Below, one piece after another: positions 7,065 through 63,201 of a stretch of 64,000 bases of DNA (within the stretch, counting starts at the first letter, position 1; the number at the start of each line of letters is the position of its first letter). The position numbers and the translations under genes were made by a program. This DNA is from an uncultured Candidatus Rokubacteria bacterium. Lineage in GTDB: Bacteria > Methylomirabilota > Methylomirabilia > Rokubacteriales > CSP1-6. The stretch covers positions 48,632-112,631 of the forward strand of contig CAVVEU010000020.1 in the NCBI GenBank assembly GCA_963747235.1. Direction: 5' to 3'. Below the pieces are notes generated by a model. The model ran no database searches and was not told the origin of the DNA. It was given only the letters and a program-made list of their open reading frames with translations.

Positions 7065-7074
7065 GCGCGCGCGA

Positions 7075-10396: not shown

Positions 10397-10463
10397 GGCG
10401 GTGAGGGCTTCGAGATTGGCGTGGACGTCCGAGATGACCGCGTAGCGGATGGCGGCCGGCCCG

Positions 10464-37400: not shown

Positions 37401-37422
37401 CTTAGCACGCGCGGGACGCGCC

Positions 37423-38397: not shown

Positions 38398-39615
38398 CTA
38401 GAGCGTGCCGCGCAGGGTTGCCACCGCCGCGGCCAGGCGCTCGACCTCGCCCGCCGTGGAGTGCACCGAGAAGCTCGCGCGCAGCGTGCCCGCGATGCCG
38501 AGGCGGCGCATCAGCGGCTGGGCGCAGTGAAAGCCCGCGCGCACCGCGATCCCCTGCTGGTCGAGCAGCGCGGCGCCGTCGTGGGGGTGCAGCCCCTCCA
38601 CGTTGAAGGCCACCACCGCGCCCTTCATCTCGGGATTGCGCGGGCCGTAGAGGGTGACGCCCTCGATGCGCCCCAGCGCGTCCAGGCACTGCGCGACGAG
38701 CGCCTGCTCGTGGGCCAGCACCTCGCTCATGCCGAGCTTGCCGAGGTATTCGCACGCCGCGTGCAGCCCCACCGCCTCCGCGATCGGGGGCGTGCCCGGC
38801 TCGAAGCGCCACGGCAGGTCGTTCCACTGCGCGCGGTCGATCCAGACCTCCTTGATCATCTCGCCGCCGCCCCAGGCGGGCTCGAGCTTGTCCAGCACCT
38901 CGCGGCGCCCGTAGAGCACGCCGATGCCGGTGGGCCCGAGCATCTTGTGGCCGGAGAAGGCGTAGAAGTCGGCGCCGATCGCGTTCAGGTCGAGCGGGAG
39001 ATGCGGCACCGCCTGGGCCCCGTCGAGCAGCACGAGCGCGCCGGCCCGGTGCGCGCGCTCCACGATCTGGGCCACCGGGTTGATCGTCCCGAGCACGTTG
39101 GAGACGTGGGCGACCGCCACCACGCGTGTGCGCGGGGAGAGCAGGCGGTCGAAGGCCTCGAGGTCGAGATACCCCTCCCCGACCACCGGGATCGCGCGCA
39201 GCACCGCGCCGCGGTCGCGACAGGCCATCTGCCACGGGATCAGGTTCGAGTGGTGCTCGAGCTCGCTGACGATGATCTCGTCGCCCGCCTTGAGCGTCCG
39301 TCCCACCGCCTGCGCCACCAGGTTGATCCCCTCGGTGGTGCCGCGCGTGAAGATGATCTCCTCGCGGCTGCGGGCGCCCACGAAGGCGCGCACCGCGTCC
39401 CGGGCCGCCTCGTACCGCTCGGTGGCTTCCTCGCCCAGGGTGTGGATGGAGCGGTGCACGTTGGCGTGGCTCGTCTGGTAGTAGTTCGAGATGGCCTCGA
39501 TCACCGCGAGCGGCTTCTGGCTGGAGGCGGCCGAGTCGAGATAGACGAGCGGATGCCCGTTCACGATGCGGGAGAGGATCGGAAAGTCGCGGCGGGTCTT
39601 CTCGCCCAGGTTCAT
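38398..39615 (-). CDS. sufS: Cysteine desulfurase, SufS type (class-V aminotransferase, group II)
   Basis: MNLGEKTRRDFPIL… PLP lysine SGHK, catalytic Cys in GFHCAQPLM, HHSNL motif. Confidence 0.85.
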   Translation of the reverse strand: MNLGEKTRRDFPILSRIVNGHPLVYLDSAASSQKPLAVIEAISNYYQTSHANVHRSIHTLGEEATERYEAARDAVRAFVGARSREEIIFTRGTTEGINLVAQAVGRTLKAGDEIIVSELEHHSNLIPWQMACRDRGAVLRAIPVVGEGYLDLEAFDRLLSPRTRVVAVAHVSNVLGTINPVAQIVERAHRAGALVLLDGAQAVPHLPLDLNAIGADFYAFSGHKMLGPTGIGVLYGRREVLDKLEPAWGGGEMIKEVWIDRAQWNDLPWRFEPGTPPIAEAVGLHAACEYLGKLGMSEVLAHEQALVAQCLDALGRIEGVTLYGPRNPEMKGAVVAFNVEGLHPHDGAALLDQQGIAVRAGFHCAQPLMRRLGIAGTLRASFSVHSTAGEVERLAAAVATLRGTL

Positions 39616-39986
39616 CGCGTCACCTCCTGACCGCTGAGGGCCTCCTGCAGGACGCTCAGCGGGAGCGTCACGCACTTCATCCGTGACGGCCGGATATCGG
39701 AATCGAGCCGCTCCAGCAGGCTCGACGGGGTCTGGGTCTGCGCGAAGCCCACCGGCTGGCCGAGCGCGGCCTCGAGCAGCAGGTCGGCGGAGGCCGCGCA
39801 GATCGCGCAGCAGTCGCCGGTCCAGCGGGCCTCGGCCAGGCGCCCGTCGGCGAGCCGGCCCTGGATGCGCACGCGGTCGCCGCAGAGCGGGTTCACGTCC
39901 TCGTGGGCCACGTCCGGGCGCTCGATCGCGCCGCGGAAGAGCGGCCGGCGGAAGCGCTCCCGGATCACGTCGCTGTAGAGCGCCAT
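39612..39986 (-). CDS. sufU: SufU/IscU-like sulfur acceptor / Fe-S scaffold
   Basis: 125 aa with NPLCGD…GDCCAICAASADLL motifs. Directly downstream of sufS with overlapping stop/start. Confidence 0.75.
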   Translation of the reverse strand: MALYSDVIRERFRRPLFRGAIERPDVAHEDVNPLCGDRVRIQGRLADGRLAEARWTGDCCAICAASADLLLEAALGQPVGFAQTQTPSSLLERLDSDIRPSRMKCVTLPLSVLQEALSGQEVTR

Positions 39987-39988
39987 GG

Positions 39989-41035
39989 TTACTCGGCCAG
40001 CTCGCCGCGGGCGCCGGTCTTGCGGTACGGCGGGAAGCGGTACGCGCTGTCGCGCGAGAGCAGGCCGCCGTGGCCGAGGGCGGCGATCTCGGCCGCGCCG
40101 GTCGGGAGCCCGGCCAGGATGCGCGGCAGCACCAGGTCGAACGTGGTCGCCTGCGAGAACATGCCGCAGGCGGGCATGCCGAGCACCGGGTGCCCGCGCA
40201 CCTCCGCGATCCACAGCAGGCTGCCCGGATGGGCCGGCGCGCCGTGCCGGATCATGCGGCCGCCCAGGCGCTCGAGCCCCGCGAAGACCGGATCGAGCGG
40301 ATCGAGCGAGCCCGCGCCGGCCGCGATCAGGATGTCGGCGCCGGCGGCCAGCAGGGCCTCCATCTCGCCCGCGACCGCGGCGGCGTCCCCGGCCGCGTAG
40401 CGCACCGGCAGCAGCCGCGAGCCGAACCAGTCCACCTTCTCGGTCAGGGAAGACTCGAAGCGCTGGCGCTGGGGCGGAGCCAGGGTCTCGCGGCTCAGCG
40501 CGGCCAGCACGTGAGGCTGGAAGGGCTTCACCGAGACGAGCCCGCCCGCGCTCGCCGCGCGGCTCTCCGCGTCCTTCACCAGCCGCTCCGGGATGGCCAG
40601 CGGGGTGATCTTGGCCCGGGCCACCGGCTCGCCCGACTCCACCGGCTGCAGATCGTAGAGCGTGAAGACCGACATGCCCTCGAGCCCGTTGACCGCCGCG
40701 ACCGCGGGCGCGTTGACGCCGACGAGGCCGCGCCGCTGCGCCGCGAGCGTCCACTGCCCGCCGGTATAGCCCTTGACCTCCACGTTGGCGCCGCAGGCCG
40801 CGGCGGCCAGGCGCGAGCCGGCCGGCTCCTCGTGCACGTCGCCCGGTTCCAGCTCGAGCAGGTGCACCTCCTGCCAGGGCAGCGCGAGCAGGCGCGCCGC
40901 CGCGGCCGCGTCGAGCGTCTGGCCCTTCGAGATGGCCACCTTCCCGGCCTGGTCGCGCACGTCGTGGCACGCGATGCGCCCCTCGAGCGCGTCGGGGGTG
41001 ACGTCGCTATTCCGGTTTACGGCAACGGCCTTCAA
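39989..41035 (-). CDS. Molybdopterin-binding (MoCF_biosynth/MogA-like domain) protein of Mo-hydroxylase accessory clusters
   Basis: TTG start (LKAVAVNRNSDV…). C-terminal domain …ADILIAAGAGSLDPLDPV…PAHPGSLLWIAEVRGHPVLGMPACGM… resembles MogA/CinA-type Moco-binding folds. Its stop is 2 nt before the sufU ATG. Confidence 0.55.
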   Translation of the reverse strand: MKAVAVNRNSDVTPDALEGRIACHDVRDQAGKVAISKGQTLDAAAAARLLALPWQEVHLLELEPGDVHEEPAGSRLAAAACGANVEVKGYTGGQWTLAAQRRGLVGVNAPAVAAVNGLEGMSVFTLYDLQPVESGEPVARAKITPLAIPERLVKDAESRAASAGGLVSVKPFQPHVLAALSRETLAPPQRQRFESSLTEKVDWFGSRLLPVRYAAGDAAAVAGEMEALLAAGADILIAAGAGSLDPLDPVFAGLERLGGRMIRHGAPAHPGSLLWIAEVRGHPVLGMPACGMFSQATTFDLVLPRILAGLPTGAAEIAALGHGGLLSRDSAYRFPPYRKTGARGELAE

Positions 41036-41049
41036 GGCTTGTTCTGATT

Positions 41050-41133: not shown

Positions 41134-42223
41134 CTACTTGAGGCCGCGGCGTACTTTCTCGGAGATGGGCATGCCGGTGGCGTTGCGATGGGTGGCCAGG
41201 GCCTCGGCCAGGATGCTCAGCGCGATCTCGGGCGCGGACTGGGCGCCCAGGTCGAGCCCGATCGGCACGCGCACGCGCAGCAGCGCGTCCTCGGCCACGC
41301 CGTCCTCGCGCAGCAGGTTCAGGATCGCCGCGCCCACGCCGGCTGCTGCCGAGGAGCCCGATGTAGCCCGCCGGCGTGCTCAGGGCGTGCTTGAGCACCG
41401 GGAGGTCGTACTTGTAGTCGTGGGCGACCAGCACCAGCGCGGTGGTCGGGATCAGCGGGACCTGCTGCACCAGCTCCGACGGCACGCCGATCCGGAGATC
41501 GTCCACGTCCGGGAAGCGCTCCTTGGTGGCGAAGCGCGGCCGGCCGTCGATCACGATCGTGCGGAAGCCGAGCGTTCTGGCCAGCGTGACGAGCGGCATC
41601 GCCACGTGGCTGGCGCCGACCACGATCAGCGTGGAGGGCGGCGCGAAGACTTCCGCGAAGGCGCGCACGTTCTCGAGGAACAGCGTCCGCGACTTCCCCG
41701 CGGCCATGGCCTCGCGGGCCTCCGCGGCGAAGCGCTGGTCGAGGAAGGTATCGCCGAGCGTGCCCTCCTGCTTGCCGTCGTCGAGCAGCAGGAGCTTGGC
41801 GCCGTTGTGGGGCGCATCGAGGCGGGTCACGATCACCGCCCGCCCGCCCTGCTCGGCGTGGACGCGCGCCCGCTCGTAGTAGACGAGCGTCGTGTCGTCC
41901 TTGTCGCCGAGCGTCACCGGCTCCAGGAAGACCTCGATGGTGCCGCCGCAGGTGAGCCCGATCTCCCACGCTTCCTCGTCGCCCAGGTTCAGCTCGAGGA
42001 GCCGCGGGGCGTTCTTGCCGAGCACGTCGGCCGATTCCTCGATGACCTGCGCGTCCACGCAGCCGCCGATGGTGACCGAGCCGAGCACGCGCCCGCCCTC
42101 GCCCACCAGCATCTTCGCCCCTTCCTTCCGGGGCGTGGTGCCGCGCGTGTTGACGAGGGTGGCCACCGTCACCTTGGACTCGTTCTGCTTGAGCTGGTTC
42201 AGCTGCTCGGAGAGCTCGGTCAT
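41134..42223 (-). CDS. xdhC: XdhC/CoxF-family Mo-hydroxylase maturation factor (XdhC_CoxI + Rossmann domains); one frame change at ~41340
   Basis: N-part MTELSEQLNQL…GYIGLLGSS (frame 1). C-part AAILNLLREDGVAEDALLRVRVPIGLDLGAQSAPEIALSILAEAL… (frame 2). Break next to a GATC (ggcgatcctg). Confidence 0.75.
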
Positions 42224-44965: not shown

Positions 44966-45829
44966 TTACTTCACGGCCGCGGCGGCCGCCTCCATCGCCC
45001 GCTTGGCGAAGACCCGCACCAGGTGGCTCTTGTACTCCACCGTGCCCTGCAGATCGGCCTGGACGTCCACGCCCTCGGCCGCCTTCTCGGCCGCCGCCTG
45101 GATGGACGCCGCGTCGGCCGCCTTGCCGGTGATCGCGGCTTCCACGCCCTTGGCGCGCACCGCCTTGGTGCCCGCGCCGGTGACCGCGACGCTGGCCTTG
45201 CCGACCTTGCCGCCGTCCACGCTCAGCACCGCCGCGACGCCGACCACCGCGAACCGCGAGGCCGGATGCGGGAACTTCATGTAGGCGGCGCCGGTCTTGC
45301 CCGCCATCGCGGGGACGCGCACCTCGGTCAGGATCTCGTCTTCCGCGAGCGCGGTGGTGAGCAGGCCCTTGAAGAAATCATCGGCCTTGATGGTGCGCTT
45401 GCCCTTGGGGCCCTCGGCCACCATCTCCGCGCCGAGCGCGATGATCGCGGCCGGGTAGTCGGCGGCCGGGTCCGCGTGGGCCAGGCTGCCGCCGATCGTG
45501 CCCATGTTGCGCACCATCGGGTCCCCGATCTGGGCGGCCACCGCGGCGAGCATCGGGCACTTCGCCTTCACGACCGCCGAGGACTCGACCTGGTAGTGGG
45601 TGGTCATCGCGCCGATGACGAGCGTGGTGCCGTCTTCCTTGATGCCGGACAGGCCGGACACTTTCCGGAGATCGACGAGGTGCTTCGGCTGGGCCAGGCG
45701 CAGCTTCATGGCCGGGAGCAGGCTGTGCCCGCCCGCCAGCAGCTTGGCGTCGTCCTTGTGGCGCCCGAGCAGGTCCAGCGCCTCTCGCACGGTGCCGGGC
45801 GTGTGGTACTCGAACTGGGCTGGGTACAT
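44966..45829 (-). CDS. coxM: Molybdenum hydroxylase medium (FAD-binding) subunit CoxM
   Basis: 287 aa, FAD_binding_5 + CO_deh_flav_C (MYPAQFEYHTPGTVREALDLL…). SD GGGGAG upstream. Confidence 0.85.
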   Translation of the reverse strand: MYPAQFEYHTPGTVREALDLLGRHKDDAKLLAGGHSLLPAMKLRLAQPKHLVDLRKVSGLSGIKEDGTTLVIGAMTTHYQVESSAVVKAKCPMLAAVAAQIGDPMVRNMGTIGGSLAHADPAADYPAAIIALGAEMVAEGPKGKRTIKADDFFKGLLTTALAEDEILTEVRVPAMAGKTGAAYMKFPHPASRFAVVGVAAVLSVDGGKVGKASVAVTGAGTKAVRAKGVEAAITGKAADAASIQAAAEKAAEGVDVQADLQGTVEYKSHLVRVFAKRAMEAAAAAVK

Positions 45830-45843
45830 GTCGGCGTCTCCCC

Positions 45844-48205
45844 TTACTTCCTGGATTTGGCGGCCTGAGCGGTTTTCCAGACCCGCTCCGGCGTGAGTGG
45901 CATGGCGTCGATGTGGTCCACGCCGAGCCCCGACAGGGCGTCCACCACCGCGTTGACCACCGCCGGCGTCGAGGCGATCGTGCCCGTCTCGCCCGCTCCC
46001 TTGACGCCGAGCGGGTTCACGAGCGTGGGCGTCTCGGTGCGGTCGGTCTCGTAGAACGGCAGCATGTCCGCCTTGGGGAGCGTGTAGTCCATCATGCTCC
46101 CGCTGACGAGCTGCCCGGAGGCCTTGTCGTACACCGCCTCCTCCCAGAGCGCCTGCGCCACGCCCTGGGCGATGCCCCCGTGGACCATGCCGTCCACGAT
46201 CATCGGGTTGATCACGTTGCCGACGTCGTCCACCGCGACGTAACGAAGGATCTTCACGTGGCCGGTGTCCGGATCCACCTCGACCATGCAGGCGTGGGCG
46301 CCGAACGGGAAGCAGAAGTTGGACGGGTCGTAGAAGCTCGTCTCCTCGAGACCCGGCTCCACGCCCTCCGGATAGTTGTGCGGCACGTACGCGGTGAGCG
46401 CGACCTGGCCGAACGGGATCGCCTTCTCGGGCGAGCCCTTGACCACGAACTGGCCGTTGACGTACTCCATGTCCTTCGGATTCGCCTCGAGGAGGTGGGC
46501 GGCGATCTTCTTGCCCTTCTCCTTGATCTTGTCGAGCGACATCACGATGGCGGTGCCGCCCACCGAGGCCGAGCGGCTGCCGTAGGTGCCCATGCCGAAC
46601 GGCACGCGGCCGGTGTCGCCGTGCACGATCTCGATGTCGTCCATCGGGATGCCGAGGGAGTCGGCCACGATCTGGGCCATGGTGGTCTCGTGCCCCTGCC
46701 CGTGCGAGTGGGAGCCGGTGAACACGCTGACCTTGCCGGTGGGATGCACCTGGACCTTGCCGGACTCCCAGAGACCCGCCTGGGCGCCGAGCGAGCCCAC
46801 GACCTTGGAGGGCGCGATGCTGCAGGCCTCGATGTAGGTCGAGAAGCCGATGCCCATCAGCCGGCCCTGCGCGCGCGCCGCCGCCTGGTCGGCCCGGAAC
46901 TTCTTGTAGTCGATCATGCCGAGCAGCTTGTCGAGGGCGCCCAGGTAGTTGCCGCTGTCGTAGGACAGCGCGACCTTGGTCTGGTAGCCGTCGGAGAACT
47001 TCGGGATGAAGTTCTTCTTCCGGATGTCCACCGGGTCCATCTTGAGCGCGGCCGCCGCGGCGTCCACCATCCGCTCGAGCAGGTAGCAGGCCTCGGGCCG
47101 TCCGGCCCCGCGGTAGGCGTCCACCGGCGTGGTGTTGGTGAAGACGCCGGTGACCTCCGCGTGGATCGCGGGCCACTCGTACACTCCGTTGAGCAGCGTG
47201 GCGTACAGATACGTCGGCACCGCCGGCGCGAACGTCGAGAGATAGGCGCCCAGGTTGGCGGTGGTCTTCACGCGCAGGCCCAGGAACTTGCCGTCCTTGG
47301 CGAGCGCGATCTCGGCGTCGGTCACGTGGTCGCGCCCGTGGGCGTCGGTCTGGAAGGCCTCGCGGCGCGAGGAGGTCCAGCGGATCGGCCGCTTGATCTG
47401 CTTGGTCGCCCAGGTGCAGACCGTCTCCTCGTTGTAGAGGAAGATCTTGGAGCCGAAGGCCGCCGCCCACGTCGGGCGCGATCACCCGCACCTTGTGCTC
47501 GGGGATGCCCAGCACGAACGCGGTCATGAGCAGCCGGTGCACGTGCGGGTTCTGCGAGGTGACCCAGAGCGTCCAGTCGCCGGTGGAATCGTCGTAGCGC
47601 GCCACGCAGGCCCGCGGCTCCATGGCATTGGCCACCAGGCGCTGGTTGATGATCCGCTTCTTCACGACGACCGGCGCCGCCTTGAAGGCGGCCTCGGTGG
47701 CCGCCGCGTCGCCGATCTGCCACTTGAAGGCCTCGTTGCTCGGGGCCACCTCGTGGATCTGCGGCGAGCCCTTGGCGGCCGCCTTCTCGGTGTCCGTCAC
47801 CGAGGGCAGGACTTCCCAGTCCACCACCACCATCTCGGCCGCGTCGCTCGCCGCCGACTGGCTCTCCGCGATCACGATGGCCACCGGGTCCCCCACGTAG
47901 CGGGCGGCGTCGGAGGCGAGCGGCATGTGGGCCGGGATCTTCAGCTCGGGCAGGAGCCAGCCGCAGGGCAGCGAGTTCACCCCGGTCATGTCCTTGCCGG
48001 TGAAGATCGCCACGACGCCCGGCGCCTTCGACGCCTTGGCGATGTCGATCTTGCGGATCTTCGCGTTGGCGTGCGGGCTGCGCACGAAGAACGCGTGGGT
48101 CATGCCGGCCAGCTTCAGGTCGTCGGTGTAGTTGCCCTTGCCGGTGATGAACCGGGGATCCTCACGTCGTTTGATGCTCGCGCCGAGCAGCCGGGCGGTG
48201 GCCAT
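45844..48205 (-). CDS. coxL: Molybdenum hydroxylase large subunit, form-II CODH-like CoxL (AYRGAGR active-site motif); one frame change at ~47460
   Basis: N-part [29 protein letters not shown]…VIAPDVGGG (frame 1). Remainder [28 protein letters not shown]…[21 protein letters not shown]…AKSRK in the -1 frame. One G is missing from the GGCGGCGGC run. The 1079-aa ORF in the track fuses coxL-N with coxM. Confidence 0.8.
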
Positions 48206-48214
48206 GGTCGCGCC

Positions 48215-48688
48215 TCACTTCCCCGCCATCTTCTCGGCGGCGTACTGGATGGCCTTGACGATGTTGTGGTAGCCGGTGCAGCGGCACAGGTTGCCTTCCA
48301 GATCGTGGCGGATCTGCGCCTCGGTCGGCCGCGGGTTGCGCTGCAGCATCTGGTGGGCGGACATGATCATGCCCGGCGTGCAGAAGCCGCACTGCAGGCC
48401 ATGCTTCTCCCAGAAGGCGTCCTGGATCGGGTGGAGCTTGCCGTCCTTGGCGAGCCCCTCGATCGTGAGGACCTGGGCGCCGTCGCACTGCACCGCGAGC
48501 AGCGTGCACGACTTCACGGCCACGCCGTTGACGTGCACCGTACAGGCGCCGCACTGGCTCGTGTCGCACCCGACGTGCGTGCCGGTCAGGCCCGCCTGCT
48601 CCCGGATGTAGTGCACGAGCAGCAGCCGCGGCTCGACTTCGTGGGACTGGGGAGCACCGTTGATCGTCATCGACACGGTCTTTTTCAC
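48215..48688 (-). CDS. coxS: Molybdenum hydroxylase small (2Fe-2S) subunit CoxS
   Basis: SD AGGAGG then GTG at 48688. [30 protein letters not shown]… with both Cys clusters (CDTSQCGAC…C and CGFCTPG…CRC). Confidence 0.85.
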
Positions 48689-48762: not shown

Positions 48763-49950
48763 TCAAGGGGTGGTGAGGAGTCGCCGGCCCTCGACGCGCG
48801 CCTGCTCGAGCACCTCCCGCACCGGGAGGCCTCGGTCCCGCGCGATGCGGCGCACTTCCTCGAATTCCGGGGTGACCGTGACCACCCGGCCCTCGAGCCG
48901 GGAGACCTTGAAGGTCACCGGCCCGTAGGCGGTGTCCAGACGCACCATCTCGCGCTCGAGGCGGCTGCGCTGGTACGCGGTCCAGCGCACGCCGATGGTG
49001 GAGGACTCCTCGAAGAGGAGCCGCGAGAGGTCGGCGACCCGCCCCGGCTCGCAGAGGGCGGTCAGGACCACGCCCGGGCGGCTGCGCTTCATGATGACCG
49101 GGGTGAGCCAGACGTCCAGCGCGCCGGCCTCGAGGAGCCGCTCCAGCAGGGGCTCGTAGAGCTGGGGCGACATGTCGTCCACGGTGGTCTCGACCTGCAT
49201 GATGGTCTCGGTGGGCGTGGCCCCTGCGGCTGCCTCGGCCTCGCCCAGGAAGAGCCGCAGCACGTTGGGCGTCTGGAGATCCATGGTGCCGGCGCCGTAA
49301 CCGACCGCGGTCACTCGCATGGCCGGCATCGTCCCGGCTCCCACCGCGAGCGTCGTGAGGATCGCGGCCCCGGTCGGGGTGACCAGCTCGCGGCGGATGC
49401 CGGTGTCGAGCGTCGGGAAGCCCTTGAGCAGCTCGGCGGTGGCGGGGCCGGGTACCGGCATGCGGCCGTGCGGGCCCTCCACGAAGCCGCCGCCCACCGG
49501 CAGGGCGCTCACGTGCACGGCGTCCACGCCGAGCAGGTGGAGGCCGATGCACGCGCCGGTGACGTCCACGATGGCGTCCACCGCGCCCACGTCGTGGAAC
49601 TGCACGCGCTCCGGCGTGGTGCCGTGCACCCGCGCCTCCGCCTCGGCCAGGCGCTGGAAGATGCGCGAGGCCATGTCCCGCACCGCCGGCGCCAGGCGGC
49701 TGCGCTCCAGGATGTCGAGGATCTCGCGGAGCCCGCGATGGCCCGCCTCGTGGTGGCCGAGCGCCACCTCCACCTTGGTGGCCCGGAAGCCCGCCTTGAT
49801 GACCTCGCGGCGCTCGAGCCGGTAGCCCTGCACGCCGAGCCCGTCCAGCTCGCGCGCGAGCGCCTCGAACGGCGCGCCCGCGTCCACCAGCGCGCCCAGG
49901 ATCATGTCCCCGGACGCCCCGCTCGGGCAGTCGAAGTAAGCCAGGCGCAT
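48763..49950 (-). CDS. larC: Nickel-pincer cofactor biosynthesis protein LarC (nickel insertase, DUF111)
   Basis: 395 aa, [25 protein letters not shown]… typical LarC N-terminus. Confidence 0.8.
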
Positions 49951-49956
49951 GCGGGG

Positions 49957-50715
49957 TTAGCGGAGCTTGGAGGCGAGCTTGTTGATCTGGTTCGCCTGCG
50001 CGGCGGCCCCGTAGCCGTTGTCGATGTTGACGACGGAGACACCGGGGGCGCAGGAGTTCAGCATGGCGAGCAGCGCGGCCACGCCGCCGAAGGAGGCGCC
50101 GTAGCCCACGCTGGTGGGCACCGCGATCACCGGGCGATCCACCAGCCCGCCGAGCACGCTCGGGAGCGCGCCTTCCATGCCGGCCACCGCGATGATGGCG
50201 TTGGCCTCGTTGAGGCGGTCCAGATGCGGCACCAGCCGGTGGAGACCCGCCACGCCGCAGTCGAACACCCGCTCGACATGGTTGCCCATCGCCTCCGCGG
50301 TGACCGCGGCCTCCTCGGCCACCGGCTGATCGGAGGTGCCCGCGCTGACGACCACGATGAGCCCGACGCCCTCGCGCGCCACCGGCTTGATCACGACGAG
50401 GCGCGCGGCCTCGTGCACCTGGCACGGCAGCCCGCTCGCGAGCAGCGCGACCACCACCGCGGGCTCGGCGCGCGTGGCGAGCACGTTGTCGTGCGCCTCG
50501 GCGAGCCGCCGGACGATCGCCACCACCTGCTCCGGCGTCTTGCCCTGGCAGAAGACGGCCTCGGGTACGCCGTGCCGCAGCGAGCGGTGGAGATCCACGC
50601 GGGCGAAGCGCAGGTCCTCGACCGGCAGCGCGCGGAGGCGGGCCAGCGCCTGATCGGGCGCCATCGCGCCGGCCGCGACGGCCTCCAGCAGCGCTCTTAC
50701 TTTTTCCCGATCCAC
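49957..50715 (-). CDS. larB: Nickel-pincer cofactor biosynthesis protein LarB (PurE-like carboxylase/hydrolase)
   Basis: GTG start ([44 protein letters not shown]…), overlapping the larE 3' end by 19 nt. PurE-like fold (…[16 protein letters not shown]…). Confidence 0.8.
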
Positions 50716-51530
50716 TTCAGTGCCTCGTTGGCGCTGCCGCTGCGGAAGCCCTGCAGGTCGAGCGTGACGTAGAGATAGCCCAGCTCGCGGAAGCGCCGGA
50801 CGATCGCGCCGTGCCGGTCCTCCTCCCAGAGGCGCGGCATCTCCTCCGGCACCAGCTCGAGGCGGGCCAGGCGGTCGTGATGGCGCACCCGGAACTGGCG
50901 GAAGCCCAGGCTCCGCACGAAGGACTCCGCGTCGTCGATGCGGCGGAGCTTCTCGGCGGTGATGGGGTCGCCGTACTGGAAGCGGGACGAGAGGCACGCG
51001 AAGGAGGGCTTGTCCCAGGTCGGCAGCCCGAGCTCCTTCGAGAGCGCCCGGATCTCCTCCTTCCAGAGCGCGGCTTCGATGAGCGGGGCGCGCACGCCGC
51101 GCGCTTCCGCGGCCTTCATGCCGGGCCGGTGATCGCCCAGGTCGTCCATGTTGGCGCCGTAGATGACCTGCGCGGTGCCCGCGGCCTGCGCGATCGGCTC
51201 GAGCCGCGTGAAGAGCTCCTCCTTGCAGTGGAAGCACCGGTCGGGCGCGTTCCGCGCGTACTCCGGCCGGTCGAGCTCGCGGGTGCGGATGACCTCCTGG
51301 CGCATGCCGAGCAGGGCGGCCAGCCGCCGCGTCTCCTCGAGCTCGGCGGCCGGGTAGGTCTCGGAGTCGGCGGTCACCAGGGTCGCGCCGTCGCCGAGGG
51401 CGTCCTTGGCGGCCCGCGCGAGGAAGGTCGAGTCCACGCCGCCGGAGAAGGCCACGATCACGCGGGTCATCCCGCGCAGGAGGTCCACCAGCCGATCGTA
51501 CTTGGCGTCGAGCGTGGTCTGATCCGCCAT
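50697..51530 (-). CDS. larE: Nickel-pincer cofactor biosynthesis protein LarE (ATP-dependent sulfur transferase, PP-loop)
   Basis: 277 aa. PP-loop SGGVDS and the sacrificial-cysteine region [13 protein letters not shown]. Confidence 0.8.
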
Positions 51531-51539
51531 CGCGTGCCC

Positions 51540-52536
51540 CTACCCGAGAATCGATCCCGCGAGCTGCGCCAGCGGCACCATCGGCCGCGCGCCCACGTGC
51601 GCGATGACCTCCGCGGCGGCCAGCGAGCCGAGACGCCCGCACGTCGGCAGGTCGAGGCCCTGGCTGAGCCCGTAGAGCACACCGGCCGCGTAGAGATCGC
51701 CCGCGCCCGTCGTGTCCACCACCGCGGTGACCGGGTGCACGGCCACCGGGTGCGCCCGGCCCCTGCCCAGGATCACCGAGCCCTTCTCGCTCCGGGTGAG
51801 CGCGGCGATCTCGCAGTGCCCGCGCACGCGCGGCCAGCGCTCCGTCGAAGTCGCCGACCTCGTACAGCGCGCAGATCTCCGCCTCGTTGGCGAAGAGGAT
51901 GTCCACGTGATGCTCGACCAGGTCGAGGAAGGCCTTGCGGTGCCGCCCCACGCAGAAGGGATCCGACAGCGTGAGCGAGACCTTGCGGCCGGCGGCGTGC
52001 GCGATGGCCGCCGCGGCCCGGAACGCCTCCTGGGCCTCGGGCGGATCGAAGAGGTAGCCCTCGAGGTAGAGGATCTTGCCACGCGTGATCAGTCCCTCGT
52101 CGATGTCGGCGGGGCCGAGCCGCACCGACGCGCCGAGGAACGTGCTCATGGTGCGCTGGGCGTCGGGCGTGACCAGGATGAGGCAGCGCCCGGTGGGCGG
52201 GCCGTCGGTGGCGCGCGGCGTGTCGTAGCCCACGCCGGTGGCGCGCAGGTCGTGCCCGAACACCTCGCCGAGCTGGTCGTCGCGGACCTTGCCGACGTAG
52301 TGCGCGCGCCCGCCGAAGGACGCCACGCCGACCACCGTGTTGGCGGCCGAGCCCCCCGACATCTCGATCCCGGGCCCCATCGCGTCGTAGAGCTCGCGGG
52401 CGCGCGGCTCGTCCACCAGGTGCATGGTCCCCTTGGCCAGGCCCTGGCGCGCGAGGAACCCGTCCTCCGCGTGGGTCAGCACGTCCACCAGCGCGTTGCC
52501 GATGCCGACGACGTCGAGCTCGCCTCGATCAGCCAC
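51540..52536 (-). CDS. PfkB-family carbohydrate/nucleoside kinase (adenosine-kinase-like); one frame change at ~51830
   Basis: N-part MADRGELDVVGIGNALVDVL…ALYEVGDFDGALAAR (frame 1). C-part …GHCEIAALTRSEKGSVILGRG…DTTGAGDLYAAGVLYGL… (+1 frame). Confidence 0.7.
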
Positions 52537-53440
52537 GGCGTCCCTTGCCCTTCGGCGGGAAGTAGCGATCGAGCAGCAGGCCGAGCCGCTTGCGGGTGCG
52601 CGGCGGGAACGCCTTCGGAGAGGTGATCACCGCGCTGGCGAGCGCGTCGCCGCAGCCCGCGCCGCAGGTCTTGCCCACCCGCGGGATGACGCGCTTGAGC
52701 ACGACCTTCGCGGTGGCCACGTTCTTCTGCAGGTTGGCCACGACCGCCTCCACCGTCACCGCCGCGTGGCTCTCGTGCCACACGTCGTAGTCGGTGGCGA
52801 GCGCCAGCGTGGCGTAGCAGAGCTCGGCCTCGCGGGCCAGCTTGGCCTCCGGCATGTTGGTCATCCCGATCACCGACACGCCCCACCGGCGGTAGATCTG
52901 CGACTCGCCCTTGGTGGAGAACTGCGGCCCCTCGATGCAGATGTAGGTGCCGCCGCGGTGCACCCGCGCGCCCGCCTCCCGGCTCCCGGTCTCGAGCAGG
53001 TCGCCCAGCGCCGGGCAGACCGGCTCGGCCATGCCGACGTGGCCGACGATGCCGTCGCCGAAGAAGGTCGAGACGCGGCGCTTGGTGTGATCGTAGAACT
53101 GGTCGGGGATCACGAGATCCAGCGGGTGGATCTCCTCCTTCATGCTGCCGACCGCGCTCACCGAGATGATCCACCGGACGCCCAGGGCCTTGAGCCCGTA
53201 GATATTGGCGCGGTAGTTGATCTCGCTGGGCGTGACCCGGTGGCCGCGGCCGTGGCGCGGCAGGAAGATCACGCGGCGGTCGCCGAGCCGGCCCGTGCAG
53301 TAGGCGTCCGACGGATCGCCGAACGGCGTGCGCACGCGCACCCAGCGGAGGTCCTCGATCCCCTCCATCTCGTAGAGCCCGCTGCCTCCGATGATGCCCA
53401 GCGCGGGCTCGCCGCCCGCCTCGGCCCTGGCCGCGCTCAT
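52529..53440 (-). CDS. mtnP: S-methyl-5'-thioadenosine phosphorylase
   Basis: 303 aa, MSAARAEAGGEPALGIIGGSGLYEM… PNP_UDP_1 fold, very close to MtnP/MTAP consensus. Confidence 0.85.
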   Translation of the reverse strand: MSAARAEAGGEPALGIIGGSGLYEMEGIEDLRWVRVRTPFGDPSDAYCTGRLGDRRVIFLPRHGRGHRVTPSEINYRANIYGLKALGVRWIISVSAVGSMKEEIHPLDLVIPDQFYDHTKRRVSTFFGDGIVGHVGMAEPVCPALGDLLETGSREAGARVHRGGTYICIEGPQFSTKGESQIYRRWGVSVIGMTNMPEAKLAREAELCYATLALATDYDVWHESHAAVTVEAVVANLQKNVATAKVVLKRVIPRVGKTCGAGCGDALASAVITSPKAFPPRTRKRLGLLLDRYFPPKGKGRRG

Positions 53441-54763
53441 GCGCCGATCTCCTCGAGAACCCCGTGGGTGCGGTCCGCGCGGGCCTCCGTGATCGTGAGC
53501 GGCACGACCCGGCGGCCGAGCGTGTCGGGGCCTTCGAAGAGCACCTCGACGTAGTTGTCGGTGAGGCCCGCGAGGAGCCCGGTGCGCCGATCGCGCGCGG
53601 CGAGCACCGTCGCCTCGCGCCGGCGGCCGACCAGCCCGCGGCGGAAGGCCAGGCTCTTCCGGGCGCCCAGCCGGCGCAGCCGCCCGCTCCGCTCGTGGAT
53701 CACCGCCGGCGCCACGTGATCGGGCCGGCGCGCCGCCTCGGTCCCGGTCCGGTCCGAGTAGGCGAAGACGTGGAGCGACGAGAACGGCAGCGCCTCGACG
53801 AAGCGCATCGTCGCCTCGAAGTCCTCCGCGGTCTCGCCCGGATGTCCCACGATGACGTCGGCGCCGAGGCCCAGGTCTGGAATCGCGGCGGCGAGCCGGT
53901 CCACCAGGGCCCGGTACATGGCGGTGTGGTAGGGCCGCCGCATCAGGCGCAGCACGCGATCGCTCCCGCTCTGGAGCGGCAGGTGCAGGTGCGGCGCCAT
54001 CACCGGCAGTGTCGTCACCGCGTCGAACAGCTCGGGCGTGAAGTAGGACGGCAGCACCGAGGAGAGCCGCAGCCGGCGGAGTCCGTCCACCTCCGCGAGC
54101 TCCCGGAGCAGCGCGGCCAGCGTGGTGCGCGGGTAGCAATCCCAGCCGTAGTGGCCGATGTCCACCCCGGTGAGCGTGACGTCGAGGTAGCCGGCGGCCA
54201 CGAGGGTCCGCACCTGGTCGAGCGCGACCTTGGGCTCCTGGCTCCGGCTCCGCCCGCGCGCGGCCGGCACGATGCAGAAGGCGCAGCGGTGCTGGCAGCC
54301 GTCCTGGATCTTCACGAAGCCGCGCGAGCGGCCGGCCACCCGGCGCGACGGGCGCGATCGGGATCTCGCGCGCTCCGCCGATGTCGGCCACCGCCACCTC
54401 GGGCCGCGCCCGCCTGGTGAGCGAGCCGAGCAGCTCGGGCAGGCGGTACTTCTCCTGGTTGCCCACGACCAGGTCCACCCCGGCGATCGCGGCGACCGCC
54501 CGCGGGTCGGTCTGAGCGAAGCAGCCGGTCACGACCAGATAGGCGTCCGGGTTCTCGCGGGCGACGCGGCGGATGAGCTGGCGATCGGAGAAGTCCGCGC
54601 GCCCGGTCACGGTGCAGGTGTTGATCACGTACACCTGCGCGGCGGCCTCGGGCTCGACGACCCGGAAGCCGCGCCCTTCCAGCAGCGCGCCGATCTCCCG
54701 GGACTCGACCTGGTTGAGGCGGCAGCCGAGGGTGGCCAGCGCCACCGTCACCGGCGCGGTCAT
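53437..54763 (-). CDS. mtaB: MiaB-like tRNA methylthiotransferase (MtaB type: MTTase N-domain, radical SAM, TRAM); one frame change at ~54345
   Basis: N-domain MTAPVTVALATLGCRLNQVESRE…VINTCTVTGRAD… (frame A). Radical-SAM part (G)RSRGFVKIQDGCQHRCAFCIVP… to the C-terminus in the +1 frame. ATG overlaps the rlmN stop (ATGA). Confidence 0.75.
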
Positions 54764-55797
54764 GCCGGGACCGTCGCCTCGCGGAGCTGGCCGCAGGCGG
54801 CGCCGATGTCCTCGCCCTTGCTCCACCGGACCGTCGCCCGGATGCCGTGCTCGAGCAGCACGGTCTGGAAGTCGAGGATCCGCGCCATCGGAGGCCGCGC
54901 GAAGCTCGAGCCCTCCCAGTCGTTGAACGGGATCAGGTTGATCTTGCCGCGGATGCCCTTGAGCAGCTTGACCAGGCGGCGCGCGTCCTCGACCGAGTCG
55001 TTGACGTCCTCGAGCAGCACGTACTCGAAGGTCATGCGCTGGCGGAACGGCAGCGGGAAGCGGCGGCACGCGGCGAGCAATTCCTCGATCGCGAAGCCCT
55101 TGTTGACCGGCATGATCCGGTCGCGGATCTCGTTGCTGGTGGCGTGGAGCGAGACCGCCAGGTTGACCCGGAGGTTCTCCTTGGCCAGCCGCTCGATGCC
55201 GGTCACGAGCCCCACCGTGGAGACCGTGATGCGCCGGGGCGAGAAGGCGAAGGCCTGCGGGTCGGTCAGCAGGCGCAGCGACTTCACGGTGGCGGTGTAG
55301 TTGGCGAGGGGCTCGCCCATGCCCATGTAGACGATGTGGGTGATCCGGAGGCCCGCGGCCAGCCCCTCGCGGGCCGCCATCACCTGGCCCACGATCTCCC
55401 CGGCGCTCAGGTTGCGCTCGAGGCCCATCGTGCCGGTGTAGCAGAAGGCGCACGCGAAGCCGCAGCCGACCTGGGTGGAGACGCAGAGCGTGAGCCGATC
55501 CGCGTCCGGCATCAGCACCGCCTGGACGCGCGCGCCGTCGCCGTAGCGGAGCACGAGCTTCTGGCTGCCGTCCTGCGACGGGGTGCGCCGCTCGACCTCG
55601 GGCACGCCCACGCTCCCCCACGCGGCCAGGGCGGCGCGGAAGTCCTTGGGCAGGTCGGTCATCGCGTCCAGATCGGTCACGCCCTTGACGAAGATCCACT
55701 GGGCGAGCTGGCGCCCCCGATAGCGCGGGGCGCCCAGGGTCTGGGCCAGCTCCTCCATCTCCGTGGGTGACAGATCGAGTAGATTCGTCGAGGACAT
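54760..55797 (-). CDS. rlmN: 23S rRNA (adenine2503-C2)-methyltransferase RlmN (radical SAM)
   Basis: 345 aa from MSSTNLLDLSPTEMEEL… CxxxCxxC = CGFACAFC, plus the conserved C-terminal Cys. Confidence 0.85.
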   Translation of the reverse strand: MSSTNLLDLSPTEMEELAQTLGAPRYRGRQLAQWIFVKGVTDLDAMTDLPKDFRAALAAWGSVGVPEVERRTPSQDGSQKLVLRYGDGARVQAVLMPDADRLTLCVSTQVGCGFACAFCYTGTMGLERNLSAGEIVGQVMAAREGLAAGLRITHIVYMGMGEPLANYTATVKSLRLLTDPQAFAFSPRRITVSTVGLVTGIERLAKENLRVNLAVSLHATSNEIRDRIMPVNKGFAIEELLAACRRFPLPFRQRMTFEYVLLEDVNDSVEDARRLVKLLKGIRGKINLIPFNDWEGSSFARPPMARILDFQTVLLEHGIRATVRWSKGEDIGAACGQLREATVPA

Positions 55798-56085: not shown

Positions 56086-57585
56086 CTACCTGAGCGTTGC
56101 CTCGTGGAACAGCATCCACTGATCGCCGCGGGGCGTCCACGTCACGCGGTCGCGCGAGGCGTAGATGTCCACCTGCTGCATGAGGAAGACCCACGTGGCA
56201 TCCTCGACCATCGCGCGCGCCAGGTCCGCGTAGATCTTCTTGCGCCGGGCGGGGTCCATGGTGGAGCGGCCCGCGTCGAAGAGCGCGTCCACCTTCTCGT
56301 TCTTGTAGTAGAGGCCGCGGCCCTTCGATGACACCAGGTTGTAGAGCTCGTCGCCGTCCTGCATCGGCCCGCCGAGCCCGAGCAGGTAGGCGTCCTGGAA
56401 CTGCTTGCCGAGATAGCGCTTGAAGTAGGCGCCCCACTCCGCCACCTGCACGCGCGGCTTGAAGCCCGCCTTCTGCCACTGGCCGCCCAGCGCCTCCGCG
56501 ATCTCCTTGTCGCCCTGGTAGCGGCCCGCGGGCGCCTCCAGCGTGATCTCGACGCCGTCCGGGTAGCCGGCTTCCGCGAGCAGGCGGCGGGCTCGCGCCG
56601 GATCCGGCCCGTAGCCGCGGACGGAGGCGTCGAAGCCGAACATCTGCGGCGTGAAGGGCCCCGCCATGCGGCGCCCGTTGCCGTCGAGCACGCTCTTCAC
56701 CAGCGCGTCCACGTCGGTCGCGTGGTTGAGCGCCTGGCGCACGCGCACGTCCGAGAGCGGCTTGTTGAAGGCGTTGAGCCCGAGATAGATGATCCACGTG
56801 CTGGGCACGCGCTGCACGCGGAGGCCGCCGACCCGCTCGAGCTCGCCCGCCAGGTTCGGCGGCACCGTGTCGATCACGTCCACCTCGTTGTTGCGGAGCG
56901 CGGCCGAGCGGGTGAAGGGCTCGGGGATGGGCTTGTAGACGATGCGCCGGATCTTCGGAGCGCCCCGCCAGTGCCGGTCGAAGGCCTCGACGATCAGGTG
57001 ATCGTCCTTGACCAGCTCCACGAAGCGGAAAGGGCCGGTGCCCACCGGCCGCAGGGCCAGGCCCTGGTTGCCCTTCTCCGCGGTGTACTTCGGCGGCACG
57101 ATCGGGAAGTCGATCAGCCGGTTCAGCAGCGGCGCGTAGGGCTGGCGGAGGACGAGGTTGACGGTGGAGTCGTCCACCACCTCCACCCGCGCGACCTCGC
57201 CCACGTTGGCCCGGTTGGGCGATTTCTGATTGGGGTCCAGCACCCGCTCGAAGGTGAAGCGCACCGCGTCGGCATTGAACGGCTCGCCGTTGTGGAAGAC
57301 GACCCCGCGGCGCAGCTTGAGCTGGAGCGTCAGGTCGTCGAGCGCCTTCCACGACTCGGCGAGCTGGGGCGCGATGCGGTTGTCGGCGTCGCGGCCCACC
57401 AGGGAATCGAAGATGTTCACGCCCACCTTGGCCCGGATGGACGAGAGGTTCATCGTGGGGTCGAGATTCTCGGGCGTCCACGGCAGCGCGACCCGGAGCT
57501 CGCCCGGGGACTGGGCGCCCGCCGGGCCGGCCGCGTACAGGAGCAGGAGCATCGCGGCCAGCCGCAGCGGCGCGTGCCTTTTCAT
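56086..57585 (-). CDS. ABC transporter substrate-binding protein, family 5 (peptide/nickel/opine type), orphan
   Basis: 499 aa with signal peptide (MKRHAPLRLAAMLLLLYAAGPAGAQS) and SBP_bac_5 fold. No permease or ATPase genes adjacent. Confidence 0.8.
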   Translation of the reverse strand: MKRHAPLRLAAMLLLLYAAGPAGAQSPGELRVALPWTPENLDPTMNLSSIRAKVGVNIFDSLVGRDADNRIAPQLAESWKALDDLTLQLKLRRGVVFHNGEPFNADAVRFTFERVLDPNQKSPNRANVGEVARVEVVDDSTVNLVLRQPYAPLLNRLIDFPIVPPKYTAEKGNQGLALRPVGTGPFRFVELVKDDHLIVEAFDRHWRGAPKIRRIVYKPIPEPFTRSAALRNNEVDVIDTVPPNLAGELERVGGLRVQRVPSTWIIYLGLNAFNKPLSDVRVRQALNHATDVDALVKSVLDGNGRRMAGPFTPQMFGFDASVRGYGPDPARARRLLAEAGYPDGVEITLEAPAGRYQGDKEIAEALGGQWQKAGFKPRVQVAEWGAYFKRYLGKQFQDAYLLGLGGPMQDGDELYNLVSSKGRGLYYKNEKVDALFDAGRSTMDPARRKKIYADLARAMVEDATWVFLMQQVDIYASRDRVTWTPRGDQWMLFHEATLR

Positions 57586-57650
57586 GCCGCGGAGTCTACC
57601 ACGCGGGTCGCGGGCCGGGCCCCGCCCCGCCGCCGGCTTTTGTTGCGTCG

Positions 57651-61885: not shown

Positions 61886-61912
61886 AGGGCGCGGCCCTTT
61901 TCAGCGCCCTTC
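61884..61912. terminator. Shared hairpin between convergent genes (hypothetical protein / glycerate kinase)
   Basis: GAAGGGCGC-ggcccttttca-GCGCCCTTC, a 9-bp perfect stem. The stop codons of both convergent genes lie inside it. Confidence 0.5.
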
Positions 61913-63201
61913 GACCAGCAGCAGGTAGAGGTCGAGCAGGTTGGTGTTGGTCGGGCCGGTGACCACCAGGTCGCCCAGGGCCGCGAACAGCGGGTTCGAG
62001 TCGTTCCGGTCCAGCCGGGCCCGCGGATCGTCGCCGCGCGCCCGCGCGCGCTTCACGGTGGCGCCGTCCGCGATCGCCCCGGCCGCGTCGGTGGGCCCGT
62101 CGGTGCCGTCCGTGCCCGCGGCCAGCGACCACGACGCCGTCCACGCCGTCGAGCTCGAGCGCGGCGGCCAGCGCCAACTCCTGGCAGCGCCCGCCGCTGC
62201 CCGGCCCGCGCACGGTCACGGTGGTCTCGCCGCCCGCGATCACGCAGGCGGGCGGCGCCACGGGCCCCCGGCCGGCCTGGATCGTCGCGGGCCAGGCCGA
62301 CGAAGCGTCCGCGCCACCTCCCGCGCCTCGCCCTCGAGCGCGCGCGTCAGCACGTGCGGGGCGTAGCCGAGCGCGCGCGCCTGCGCGGCCGCGGCCTCGA
62401 CGACCAGGAGATTGTTGCCGATCACGGTGTTGGTCACGCCGCGGAAGACCGGGTCGTCGGGCTTCGGCGTCTCCGGGATCTCCCCGCGGGCTCCCGCGCT
62501 CGAGCCGCTCGACGATCGGCGGCGGGCGTCCGCGCGCGGAGCTCGAAGCGGTCGAGGATGGCGAGCGCCTCCGCGAAGGTGGACGCGTCGGGCGCGGTCG
62601 GGCCGGAGGCGATGACGTCGAGCGGATCGCCGATCACGTCGGAGAGCAGCAGCGCGTGCACGCGGGCGGGCGCCGCGGCCCGCGCGAGCTGGCCGCCCTT
62701 CAGCAGCGAGCAGTGCTTCCGCACCGCGTTGAGCTGGTTGATGTTGGCGCCGGCGGCGAGCAGGAGCCGCGTCATCGCCTGCTTGTCGGCCAGGGTGATG
62801 GGCGGCACCGGCGCGGGGTCAGCGCCGAGCCGCCGCCCGAGACGAGGACCAGCAGCAGATCGTCGGCCCCGGCGGACTCGGCGAGCGCGCGGATCTCGCG
62901 CGCGGCCGCGGCCTCGCCGCGCTCGTCGGGGACCGGGTGCCCGGCCTCGACCAGGCGGACGCGGGCGTGTCGGGCGAGATAGCCGTCCTTGACCACCACG
63001 AGGCCGTCGGCGATCCGGTCGCCGAGCGCGTCCTCGACGGCGGCGGCCATGGCGCCCGAGGCCTTCCCCGCCCCCACCACGAGCACGCGGCCGCGCGGCG
63101 GCCAGGCGCACGTCGGCGAGGGCGCGGCGGACCAGCGGATGAACGTCGGCGGCGCGCAGCGCGGCGTCGAAGATCGAGCGCGCGGCCTCGCGGAGGCTCA
63201 C
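61900..63201 (-). pseudogene. glxK: Glycerate kinase (GlxK/MOFRL family) reading frame broken about five times
   Basis: Conserved blocks found in alternating frames: MSLREAARSIFDAALRAADVHPLVRRAL (a, from the GTG at 63201); …LVVGAGKASGAMAAAVEDALGDRIADGLVVVKDGY…LVLVSGGGSALT (b); …ITLADKQAMTRLLLAAGANINQLNAVRKHCSLLKGGQLARAA…DVIGDPLDVIASGPT… (a); …VIGNNLLVVEAAAAQARALGY… (c); …CVIAGGETTVTVRGPGSGGRCQELALAAALELDGVDGVVV (d); AGTDGTDGPTDAAGAIADGATVKRARARGDDPRARLDRNDSNPLFAALGDLVVTGPTNTNLLDLYLLLVEGR-stop (e). Confidence 0.6.

Follow-up and report, generated by a model that had tools for sequence, protein, structure and literature searches.

A LarA-less larE-larB-larC locus in Rokubacteria and an NphT-type aldo-keto reductase as candidate client of its nickel-pincer cofactor

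Nickel-pincer nucleotide (NPN) cofactors are used by enzymes other than the LarA racemases/epimerases. NphT aldo-keto reductases (AKRs) also use a nickel-pincer cofactor (Nat Chem 2026, PMC13524815), and ornithine cyclodeaminase is, as Desguin 2025 is cited in PMC13524815, the client of an adenine-dinucleotide nickel-pincer variant. Genomes with larB, larC and larE and without any larA make up ~15% of those surveyed (PMC11796402). In a 2026 survey, 2,108 of 11,067 LarC neighbourhoods had LarB and LarE and no LarA within 20 ORFs, and it was by mining such LarA-less larBCE neighbourhoods that NphT was discovered (PMC13524815). A locus without a linked LarA is common, not unusual. Here we analysed one such locus in a 64-kb stretch of DNA (hereafter, the window) from an uncultured Candidatus Rokubacteria bacterium. 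The initial annotation of this locus had taken LarA for the only known NPN-dependent family, which is contradicted by the NphT reductases and by ornithine cyclodeaminase, the latter as cited in PMC13524815. Its alternative, LarA encoded elsewhere or a client that is not LarA, holds, except that a non-LarA partner need not be undescribed because these two families, with the same reliance on that citation for the cyclodeaminase, already have been.

The lar genes are all encoded on the minus strand: larC (48763–49950; 395 aa, with LarC1 and LarC2 in a single uninterrupted ORF), larB (49957–50715; 252 aa, GTG start) and larE (50697–51530; 277 aa). These coordinates, together with NCBIfam scores above the cut-offs, confirmed a complete and tightly packed NPN set at the places first annotated, including the claimed 19-nt overlap of larB, which starts at 50715, with larE, which stops at 50697; larB and larC are spaced by 6 nt. 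In a profile scan the larC product scored 470 bits against Pfam PF01969, and its NCBIfam matches were to LarC1 (TIGR00299; 212 bits, cut-off 90) and LarC2 (NF052512; 144 bits, cut-off 50). It matched Moorella LarC (LarC_Mt; PDB 12bi) over the full length with 348 bits. In the alignment, H109, H119 and H161 are the equivalents of H108, H118 and H160, which are essential in LarC_Mt, and A, Q and T replace H53, H116 and H226, which are moderately important there (PMC13510736). Judged from its sequence, the larC product is predicted to be a CTP-dependent nickel-inserting cyclometallase.

The larB product matched LarB of NCBIfam (NF033503) with 286 bits (cut-off 175) and the PurE model with only 35 bits (cut-off 150), which sets it apart from PurE; it also matched Pfam PF00731 (52 bits) and the LarB structure PDB 7MJ0 (244 bits across residues 8–249). 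The GTG start is supported by a homologue in another locus (L026) that begins with ATG. This protein is the predicted NaAD C5-carboxylase/hydrolase that makes P2CMN. The larE product scored 329 bits against TIGR00268 (cut-off 150) and ~180 bits against PDB 5UDQ/6B2O, and its motifs include an SGGVDS P-loop, CFHC, and a Cys in FACLSSRF that lies one residue past the position of Cys176 in L. plantarum. We assigned it to the [4Fe-4S] type because CFHC and the shifted Cys constitute the CXXC-C motif defined for the LarE of T. maritima (PMC9283937), and the same features ruled out the sacrificial single-Cys subtype (Cys176, no CXXC). It is thus predicted to be an ATP-dependent sulfur insertase (P2CMN to P2TMN) of the CXXC-C [4Fe-4S] type.

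The genes on both sides of the lar genes are also on the minus strand, and domain and NCBIfam matches agree with the original placement of the lar genes between a Mo-hydroxylase locus and a PfkB kinase/MTA phosphorylase pair. The tightly packed array opens with rlmN (54760–55797; RlmN_N and Radical_SAM), upstream of which lies the sole sigma-70-like promoter match of a promoter/terminator scan (55957–55930). It continues with mtaB (53437–54763), encoding a MiaB/MtaB-type radical-SAM methylthiotransferase (UPF0004 and Radical_SAM, in two frames), and mtnP (52529–53440), encoding an S-methyl-5'-thioadenosine phosphorylase (TIGR01694, 309 bits, cut-off 275; PF01048) and overlapping mtaB by 4 nt and pfkB by 8 nt. 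The adenosine-kinase-like pfkB (51540–52536), which is read as two PfkB fragments in different frames, ends the series 9 nt upstream of larE; once frame-repaired, its product matched adenosine kinase 3UBO with 353 bits (residues 6–326). Apart from the larB/larE overlap, the spacings and overlaps from rlmN through larC are all ≤9 nt. On the other side, 74 nt downstream of larC, is a form-II type coxS-coxL-coxM Mo-hydroxylase cluster (44966–48688) with an AYRGAGR motif, and the scan found no terminator in the larC-coxS intergenic region. The Pfam scan detected Fer2_2, MoCoBD_1/2, Ald_Xan_dh_C, FAD_binding_5 and CO_deh_flav_C in coxSLM, and the top NCBIfam match of coxS was glyceraldehyde dehydrogenase gamma, at 251 bits and thus below the cut-off of 290.

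The Pfam scan covered almost all coding segments of the window, omitting five large housekeeping proteins identified by eye (ClpC-like, SMC, SecA, RecN and LysS), all of which were covered by six-frame searches for LarA. Within this scope the scan found no LarA domain (PF09861, PF21113), no aldo-keto reductase (PF00248) and no ornithine cyclodeaminase/mu-crystallin (PF02423), and jackhmmer likewise found no aldo-keto reductase in the window. The six-frame translation had no match to LarA with phmmer/jackhmmer (L. plantarum LarA) or with an HMM of 108 representatives; LarC, the positive control for LarA-type searches, gave 83 matches. With all of these searches empty, the earlier observation that no LarA is encoded within the 64 kb is upheld.

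Homologues of NphT are encoded by relatives of the window genome. At one locus of a Rokubacteria MAG (L018), an AKR gene lies 1.9 kb upstream of larE-larB-larC, and its product matches NphT (PDB 9YEB) with E = 1e-74 and keeps His144, Lys200, W218/Y219 and the tetrad D47/Y52/K75/H106. A database search for AKR homologues returned at least 8,000, the best 120 of which were 79–92% identical and 287–289 aa long; His144 and Lys200 were kept in all of these (120/120), and all but one of those named by NCBI among the best 120 were from Methylomirabilota or Rokuibacteriota. In the 105 further AKR contexts examined (726 kb), no lar genes adjoined the AKR, which leaves L018 as the one instance of AKR-lar linkage. 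One of the database homologues, a motif-keeping AKR in MAG GCA_003220265.1 (P0207, on QHRW01000016.1), is unlinked to the lar locus of the same MAG, which is syntenic with that of the window and lies on QHRW01000032.1 (L023). When the accessions of AKR-bearing MAGs were compared with the list of LarC-bearing MAGs, this one (QHRW01) matched and eight others did not. Co-occurrence of AKR and lar genes refers to two loci (L018 and L023), with LarC 70–71% identical to that of the window, compared with 80–93% for LarC of the closest relatives.

The three lar genes are identified and intact, the window encodes no known client family in the searches described, the gene order is shared with relatives, and the phylum has motif-complete NphT homologues. 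We consider it probable that the locus is an unlinked larE-larB-larC biosynthetic operon and that its client is an NphT-like AKR encoded elsewhere in the genome. By extrapolation from the relatives, the window's own genome probably encodes an NphT-type AKR, and this AKR is probably the client. LarB would carboxylate and hydrolyse NaAD to P2CMN, LarE, as a catalytic, non-sacrificial [4Fe-4S]-type enzyme, would convert both carboxylates to thiocarboxylates, and LarC with CTP would insert nickel to give the nickel-pincer mononucleotide. The operon would belong to an extended run of genes read in one direction and coupled in translation, whose other members (rlmN, mtaB, mtnP and adenosine kinase) are housekeeping genes that otherwise have nothing in common, and be followed by the Mo-hydroxylase cluster, the whole arrangement presumably being inherited phylum synteny and not a functional unit. 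The enzyme using the cofactor would be encoded elsewhere, and in the most likely client, the NphT-type AKR, the cofactor would be covalently tethered via the Lys and the nickel coordinated via the His.

The client could also be a regular racemase/epimerase of the LarA superfamily with its gene beyond the window, leaving the locus a plain unlinked biosynthetic operon, a reading to which we give clearly less credence than to the AKR. Such an enzyme would be as conventional a client as the AKR, and the two are compatible, as both clients could coexist. Homologues of LarA are found widely and vary greatly (6,705 representative clusters at E ≤ 1e-3), many larBCE loci lack a linked LarA (PMC13524815), and Rokubacteria genomes are large. 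Neither phmmer/jackhmmer nor the 108-sequence HMM (with --max) found LarA within 10 kb of larC at any of 80 LarC loci, whatever the phylum, and because of this the missing linkage in the window says little. Against a LarA client, the 108-sequence HMM found none in the 1.45 Mb made up of the window and the first 99 loci, and there was none in the 105 AKR loci (726 kb). Searching the protein database with L. plantarum LarA matched only lactobacilli and their kin, and a representative search yielded 150 diverse LarAs, of which those nearest the window genome in composition had no organism names. A high-GC profile built from 18 LarAs of such composition had, among the best 120 of at least 6,500 matches, named matches from Planctomycetes and Latescibacterota only and none from Rokubacteria, which is no test of absence.

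The gene neighbours could instead be functionally tied to the cofactor, with PfkB and MTA phosphorylase acting on a nucleoside by-product or precursor, or with CoxSLM, or some still undescribed partner that the window encodes, using NPN or cooperating with it; we regard this as improbable. The tight packing from rlmN to larC and the terminator-free 74 nt between larC and coxS would fit such a tie, although rlmN and mtaB are equally packed and conserved and have no conceivable link to NPN. The order rlmN-mtaB-mtnP-pfkB-larE-larB-larC-coxSLM-mocA was kept in ~45 Rokubacteria loci, over which LarC identity falls from 93% to 57%, whereas the rlmN-to-cox order was found in none of ~35 LarC loci from other phyla, and none of these had pfkB, mtnP or cox near larC. 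Co-occurrence of PfkB and mtnP with larBCE, which the initial annotation had proposed to check, is thus confined to Rokubacteria among these loci, where both always occur together with rlmN and mtaB. Because the order is held in Rokubacteria and absent in other phyla, we interpret the flanks as lineage synteny and not as a sign of function: their description as nucleoside- and methylthioadenosine-related is right as to identity and fails as a functional clue, and on this pattern a link of PfkB and MtnP to NPN was rejected. Moreover, what LarB releases is AMP and neither adenosine nor MTA (PMC13524815), every neighbour belongs to a standard family that has cofactors of its own, and one subclade has a different PfkB in the pfkB slot, with TPR proteins and a TPP enzyme between larB and larC. 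To see this TPP enzyme as a client is unsupported speculation. A real coupling of a nickel-pincer hydride-shuttling reductase with a Mo aldehyde/heterocycle hydroxylase, as the adjacency of larC and form-II CoxSLM might suggest, is similarly doubtful. The adjacency is kept throughout the phylum sample, and a different CoxL paralogue directly upstream of larC in one locus (L046), together with a CoxL-family gene immediately upstream of an NphT-like AKR on several metagenome contigs (5/88 contexts), may point toward coupling; CoxL paralogues are, however, frequent in Rokubacteria genomes, so adjacency by chance is plausible. If the coupling were true, it could serve, for example, sugar/aldehyde oxidation or the turnover of nicotinate-derived pyridines, in a pathway not yet described. 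Least likely of all, and very improbable in our view, is that the lar genes are decaying relics without a client in a region rich in frameshifted genes. At least four neighbouring genes have +1 frameshifts, among them pfkB (one extra base at ~51831, missing from six relatives), mtaB (at ~54342, missing from relatives) and coxL (at ~47458); a fourth frameshift is at 43775. Programmed frameshifting and pseudogene formation were rejected for these, and because every one is a single inserted base, unique to this assembly and in a conserved gene, they point to assembly error. The three lar ORFs, in contrast, are full length, far above the family cut-offs and with catalytic motifs kept; compared with six relatives they have no frameshifting indels, their length varies in-frame only, and identity across the phylum is 57–96%.

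The window locus is one more LarA-less larBCE locus beside the thousands catalogued, and the finding is therefore of little consequence by itself. Its modest use is to point to the Rokubacteria, abundant soil bacteria that are uncultured. On the sequence evidence, they appear to combine conservation of the NPN pathway with an NphT-type reductase clade that is very conserved (~80% identity over thousands of metagenome sequences) and has every residue of the cofactor-binding motif. Should this be confirmed, a major soil phylum would widely possess nickel-pincer aldo-keto reductases, and the Rokubacteria AKR clade would be a good target for finding which substrate NphT enzymes act on physiologically.

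Among known systems, the lar operon of L. plantarum has the same LarB (7MJ0, 244 bits), LarE (5UDQ, ~180 bits) and LarC2 domain (matching 6BWO), and the same predicted chemistry from NaAD to the nickel-pincer nucleotide, but includes LarA, which is not linked to the window locus. Its LarC is encoded in two parts, larC1 and larC2, that depend on a ribosomal frameshift, unlike the single 395-aa ORF of the window. Its LarE has a single sacrificial Cys176, compared with CXXC-C in the window LarE, which in sequence resembles the catalytic [4Fe-4S] LarE of T. maritima, sharing the SGGxDS P-loop, the CXXC and a third Cys one off Cys176 (PMC9283937), although organism and gene context differ. The LarC of Moorella thermoacetica (cryo-EM, PDB 12bi) is a full-length homologue whose essential His108, His118 and His160 have kept equivalents in the window, while its H53, H116 and H226 are Ala, Gln and Thr there; the sequence of the inter-domain linker also differs, and linker length varies among relatives. 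The larB, larE and larC genes of cyanobacteria (e.g., Synechocystis), which were shown to yield functional cofactor, make up the full NPN pathway and, as in the window, have no LarA in their vicinity (PMC11796402); in most cyanobacteria LarA is absent genome-wide, whereas the absence reported here covers 64 kb only. The NphT system of Alicyclobacillus cellulosilyticus (PDB 9YEB) is likewise a LarA-less larBCE locus, but there the NPMN-dependent AKR adjoins larBCE, whereas the window has no AKR and the Rokubacteria AKR is normally unlinked, with L018 the adjacent case. Close homologues of this NphT (E = 1e-74) are encoded by relatives of the window genome and keep every residue for cofactor binding and catalysis.

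The three lar genes and the 19-nt larE/larB overlap described in the initial annotation were confirmed as intact minus-strand ORFs, all scoring above the family cut-offs: larC at 48763-49950 (Pfam Ni_insertion, 470 bits; NCBIfam LarC1, 212 with a cut-off of 90, and LarC2, 144 with a cut-off of 50), larB at 49957-50715 (NCBIfam LarB, 286; cut-off 175) and larE at 50697-51530 (TIGR00268, 329; cut-off 150). Their products aligned over the full length with Moorella LarC (12bi, 348 bits), L. plantarum LarB (7MJ0, 244 bits) and the LarE structures 5UDQ and 6B2O (~180 bits), and LarC retained all three histidines that are essential in the Moorella protein.

The window is ~70% G+C with almost every gene on the minus strand, and the lar genes close a very densely packed array, in which rlmN/mtaB and mtaB/mtnP each overlap by 4 nt and mtnP/pfkB by 8 nt, with gaps of only 9 nt between pfkB and larE and 6 nt between larB and larC. 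Past larC, 74 nt in which no terminator-like site was found precede coxS-coxL-coxM-mocA and the cox accessory genes. Many genes of the window switch frame in a GC3 frame plot. Alignment to six relatives revealed no frameshifting indels in the lar genes, and window-specific single-base insertions, absent from all six, at 43775 (moxR/coxD), 47458 (coxL), 51831 (pfkB) and 54342 (mtaB). Removal of base 51831 restored a full-length adenosine-kinase homologue (353 bits to 3UBO). The frame changes thus look like indel errors of long-read assembly, not pseudogenes. The genes for xdhC (~41137-41379), nfeD (~36600-37424) and a glycerate kinase (61904-63128) are also split over frames.

A LarC scan of species-representative genomes yielded 80 loci, whose contigs were read over ±10 kb. 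The closest LarC sequences (93% identity) were from Candidatus Rokubacteria/Methylomirabilota MAGs. Searches with the window proteins (tblastn) recovered the order rlmN-mtaB-mtnP-pfkB-larE-larB-larC-coxS-coxL-coxM-mocA in ~45 Rokubacteria loci, down to 57% LarC identity. In a distant Rokubacteria subclade, a different PfkB occupies the pfkB slot, genes for a TPP-dependent enzyme and for one or two TPR membrane proteins separate larB from larC, and a small membrane protein and CoxG are inserted ahead of coxS; the TPP-dependent enzyme has all three TPP domains (6243-7919 in locus L026 and 8188-9975 in L037, with equivalents in L028-L034 and L060). The co-occurrence of pfkB and mtnP with larBCE did not extend beyond the group, as neither these genes nor mtaB, rlmN or cox were detected near larC in ~35 non-Rokubacteria loci. 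Since this Rokubacteria-restricted conservation includes plainly unrelated genes, we conclude that the lar flanks are inherited synteny, not functional evidence.

A functional tie of the lar genes to the neighboring kinase, phosphorylase or Mo-hydroxylase is accordingly very improbable. In its favor, CoxL-family genes recur beside larC, both in the conserved cluster and as a different paralogue directly ahead of larC in locus L046 (7692-9995), and one lies immediately upstream of an NphT-like aldo-keto reductase (AKR), on the same strand, in 5 of 88 AKR contexts (L104, L105, L139, L159 and L185); however, CoxL paralogues are abundant in these genomes and the adjacency may be chance. In NCBIfam, coxS (48215-48688) came closest to the gamma subunit of archaeal glyceraldehyde dehydrogenase, scoring 251 bits where the cut-off is 290, and the glycerate kinase gene, of DUF4147/MOFRL type, is 13 kb from it. 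Along with the action of the NphT family on sugars, these hint, by association only, at aldehyde or sugar-acid metabolism. Cluster-type LarE requires a supply of sulfur and Fe-S clusters. At 11 kb from larE, the minus strand (38401-40025) codes for a cysteine desulfurase, SufS, and for a scaffold protein resembling NifU/SufU, and nothing links the pair specifically to larE.

The absence of LarA from the 64-kb window was borne out. Coding segments were picked by frame plot and translated, and Pfam scans of almost all of them detected no LarA (PF09861/PF21113), aldo-keto reductase (PF00248) or ornithine cyclodeaminase (PF02423). L. plantarum LarA (100% identical to PDB 5HUQ) had no phmmer or jackhmmer match in six-frame translations of the window and the 80 loci, in which a LarC positive control had 83, and an unfiltered search with an HMM built from 108 diverse representatives of LarA likewise found none. 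A LarA homologue as an alternative or additional client is possible, though rather unlikely. Among the best 120 of >6,500 matches to a high-GC LarA profile, those named were exclusively from Planctomycetes and Latescibacterota.

LarA can no longer be called the sole known NPN-dependent family, because an ornithine cyclodeaminase using an adenine-dinucleotide variant (Desguin 2025, cited in PMC13524815) and NphT have been found. The latter is an AKR-fold client from Alicyclobacillus cellulosilyticus, in which Lys200 tethers the cofactor and His144 coordinates nickel, discovered by mining LarA-less larBCE neighborhoods (PMC13524815). Jackhmmer searches of the window and relatives' loci matched AKRs in only two places. 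In locus L074, from Prolixibacteraceae, the AKR gene adjoins larB; in L018, from a Rokubacteria MAG, it lies at 5568-6554, 1.9 kb upstream of larE-larB-larC (8414-11197), and its flanking genes code for a luciferase-like oxidoreductase and a DinB/MDMPI protein. NphT (9YEB) matched this L018 AKR at E=1e-74, with His144, Lys200, Ile199, Trp218/Tyr219, Thr142 and the full Asp47/Tyr52/Lys75/His106 tetrad conserved. It had at least 8,000 homologues in a protein database search; the best 120 of these (79-92% identity, 287-289 aa) all keep His144 and Lys200, and those named by NCBI were, with one exception, from Methylomirabilota/Rokuibacteriota. One of these homologues (P0207) is encoded on QHRW01000016.1 of MAG GCA_003220265.1, which also carries the syntenic rlmN-mtaB-mtnP-pfkB-larE-larB-larC locus on QHRW01000032.1 (L023); therefore, at least one relative combines this lar locus with an unlinked NphT-type reductase. 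No lar genes or LarA were detected next to the AKR in 105 further contexts (726 kb), and dispersal of pathway and client genes is the rule in the Rokubacteria phylum. An NphT-like reductase encoded elsewhere is thus the best candidate and probably the client.

Several other features of the window were recorded. A 24-nt unit in ~34 copies (30506-31437) reads on the minus strand as an 8-residue unit with the consensus ATRSLHVL, for which GC3 is 100%, suggesting that a repetitive protein is encoded between phnE and the M16 peptidase genes. Within the cox accessory cluster, SufU and XdhC flank a 352-aa minus-strand ORF (39992-41047) whose GC3 is coding-like; at the thresholds applied, it matched nothing in Pfam or NCBIfam. 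Upstream of rlmN, an orphan family-5 solute-binding protein (56086-57645, minus strand), whose position is kept in several relatives, has no adjacent permease or ATPase and shows weak, sub-threshold likeness to NikA-type nickel binders, GsiB and DppA. The sole RNA gene found was tRNA-Ala (CGC; 35098-35173, minus strand), with no riboswitch or other RNA matched in Rfam at gathering thresholds.

The larB, larE and larC genes occur without larA in ~15% of >1,000 surveyed genomes (PMC11796402), and 2,108 of 11,067 LarC homologues have LarB and LarE nearby with no LarA within 20 ORFs (PMC13524815), so the observation at this locus is correct but ordinary. NaAD is most likely converted to the nickel-pincer mononucleotide by LarB, LarC and a LarE of the [4Fe-4S] type, and an enzyme encoded elsewhere would then use this cofactor. 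The LarE has SGGVDS and CFHC motifs and a third Cys one residue past the position of L. plantarum Cys176, the same CXXC-C motif as in T. maritima LarE, which is non-sacrificial and depends on a [4Fe-4S] cluster (PMC9283937).
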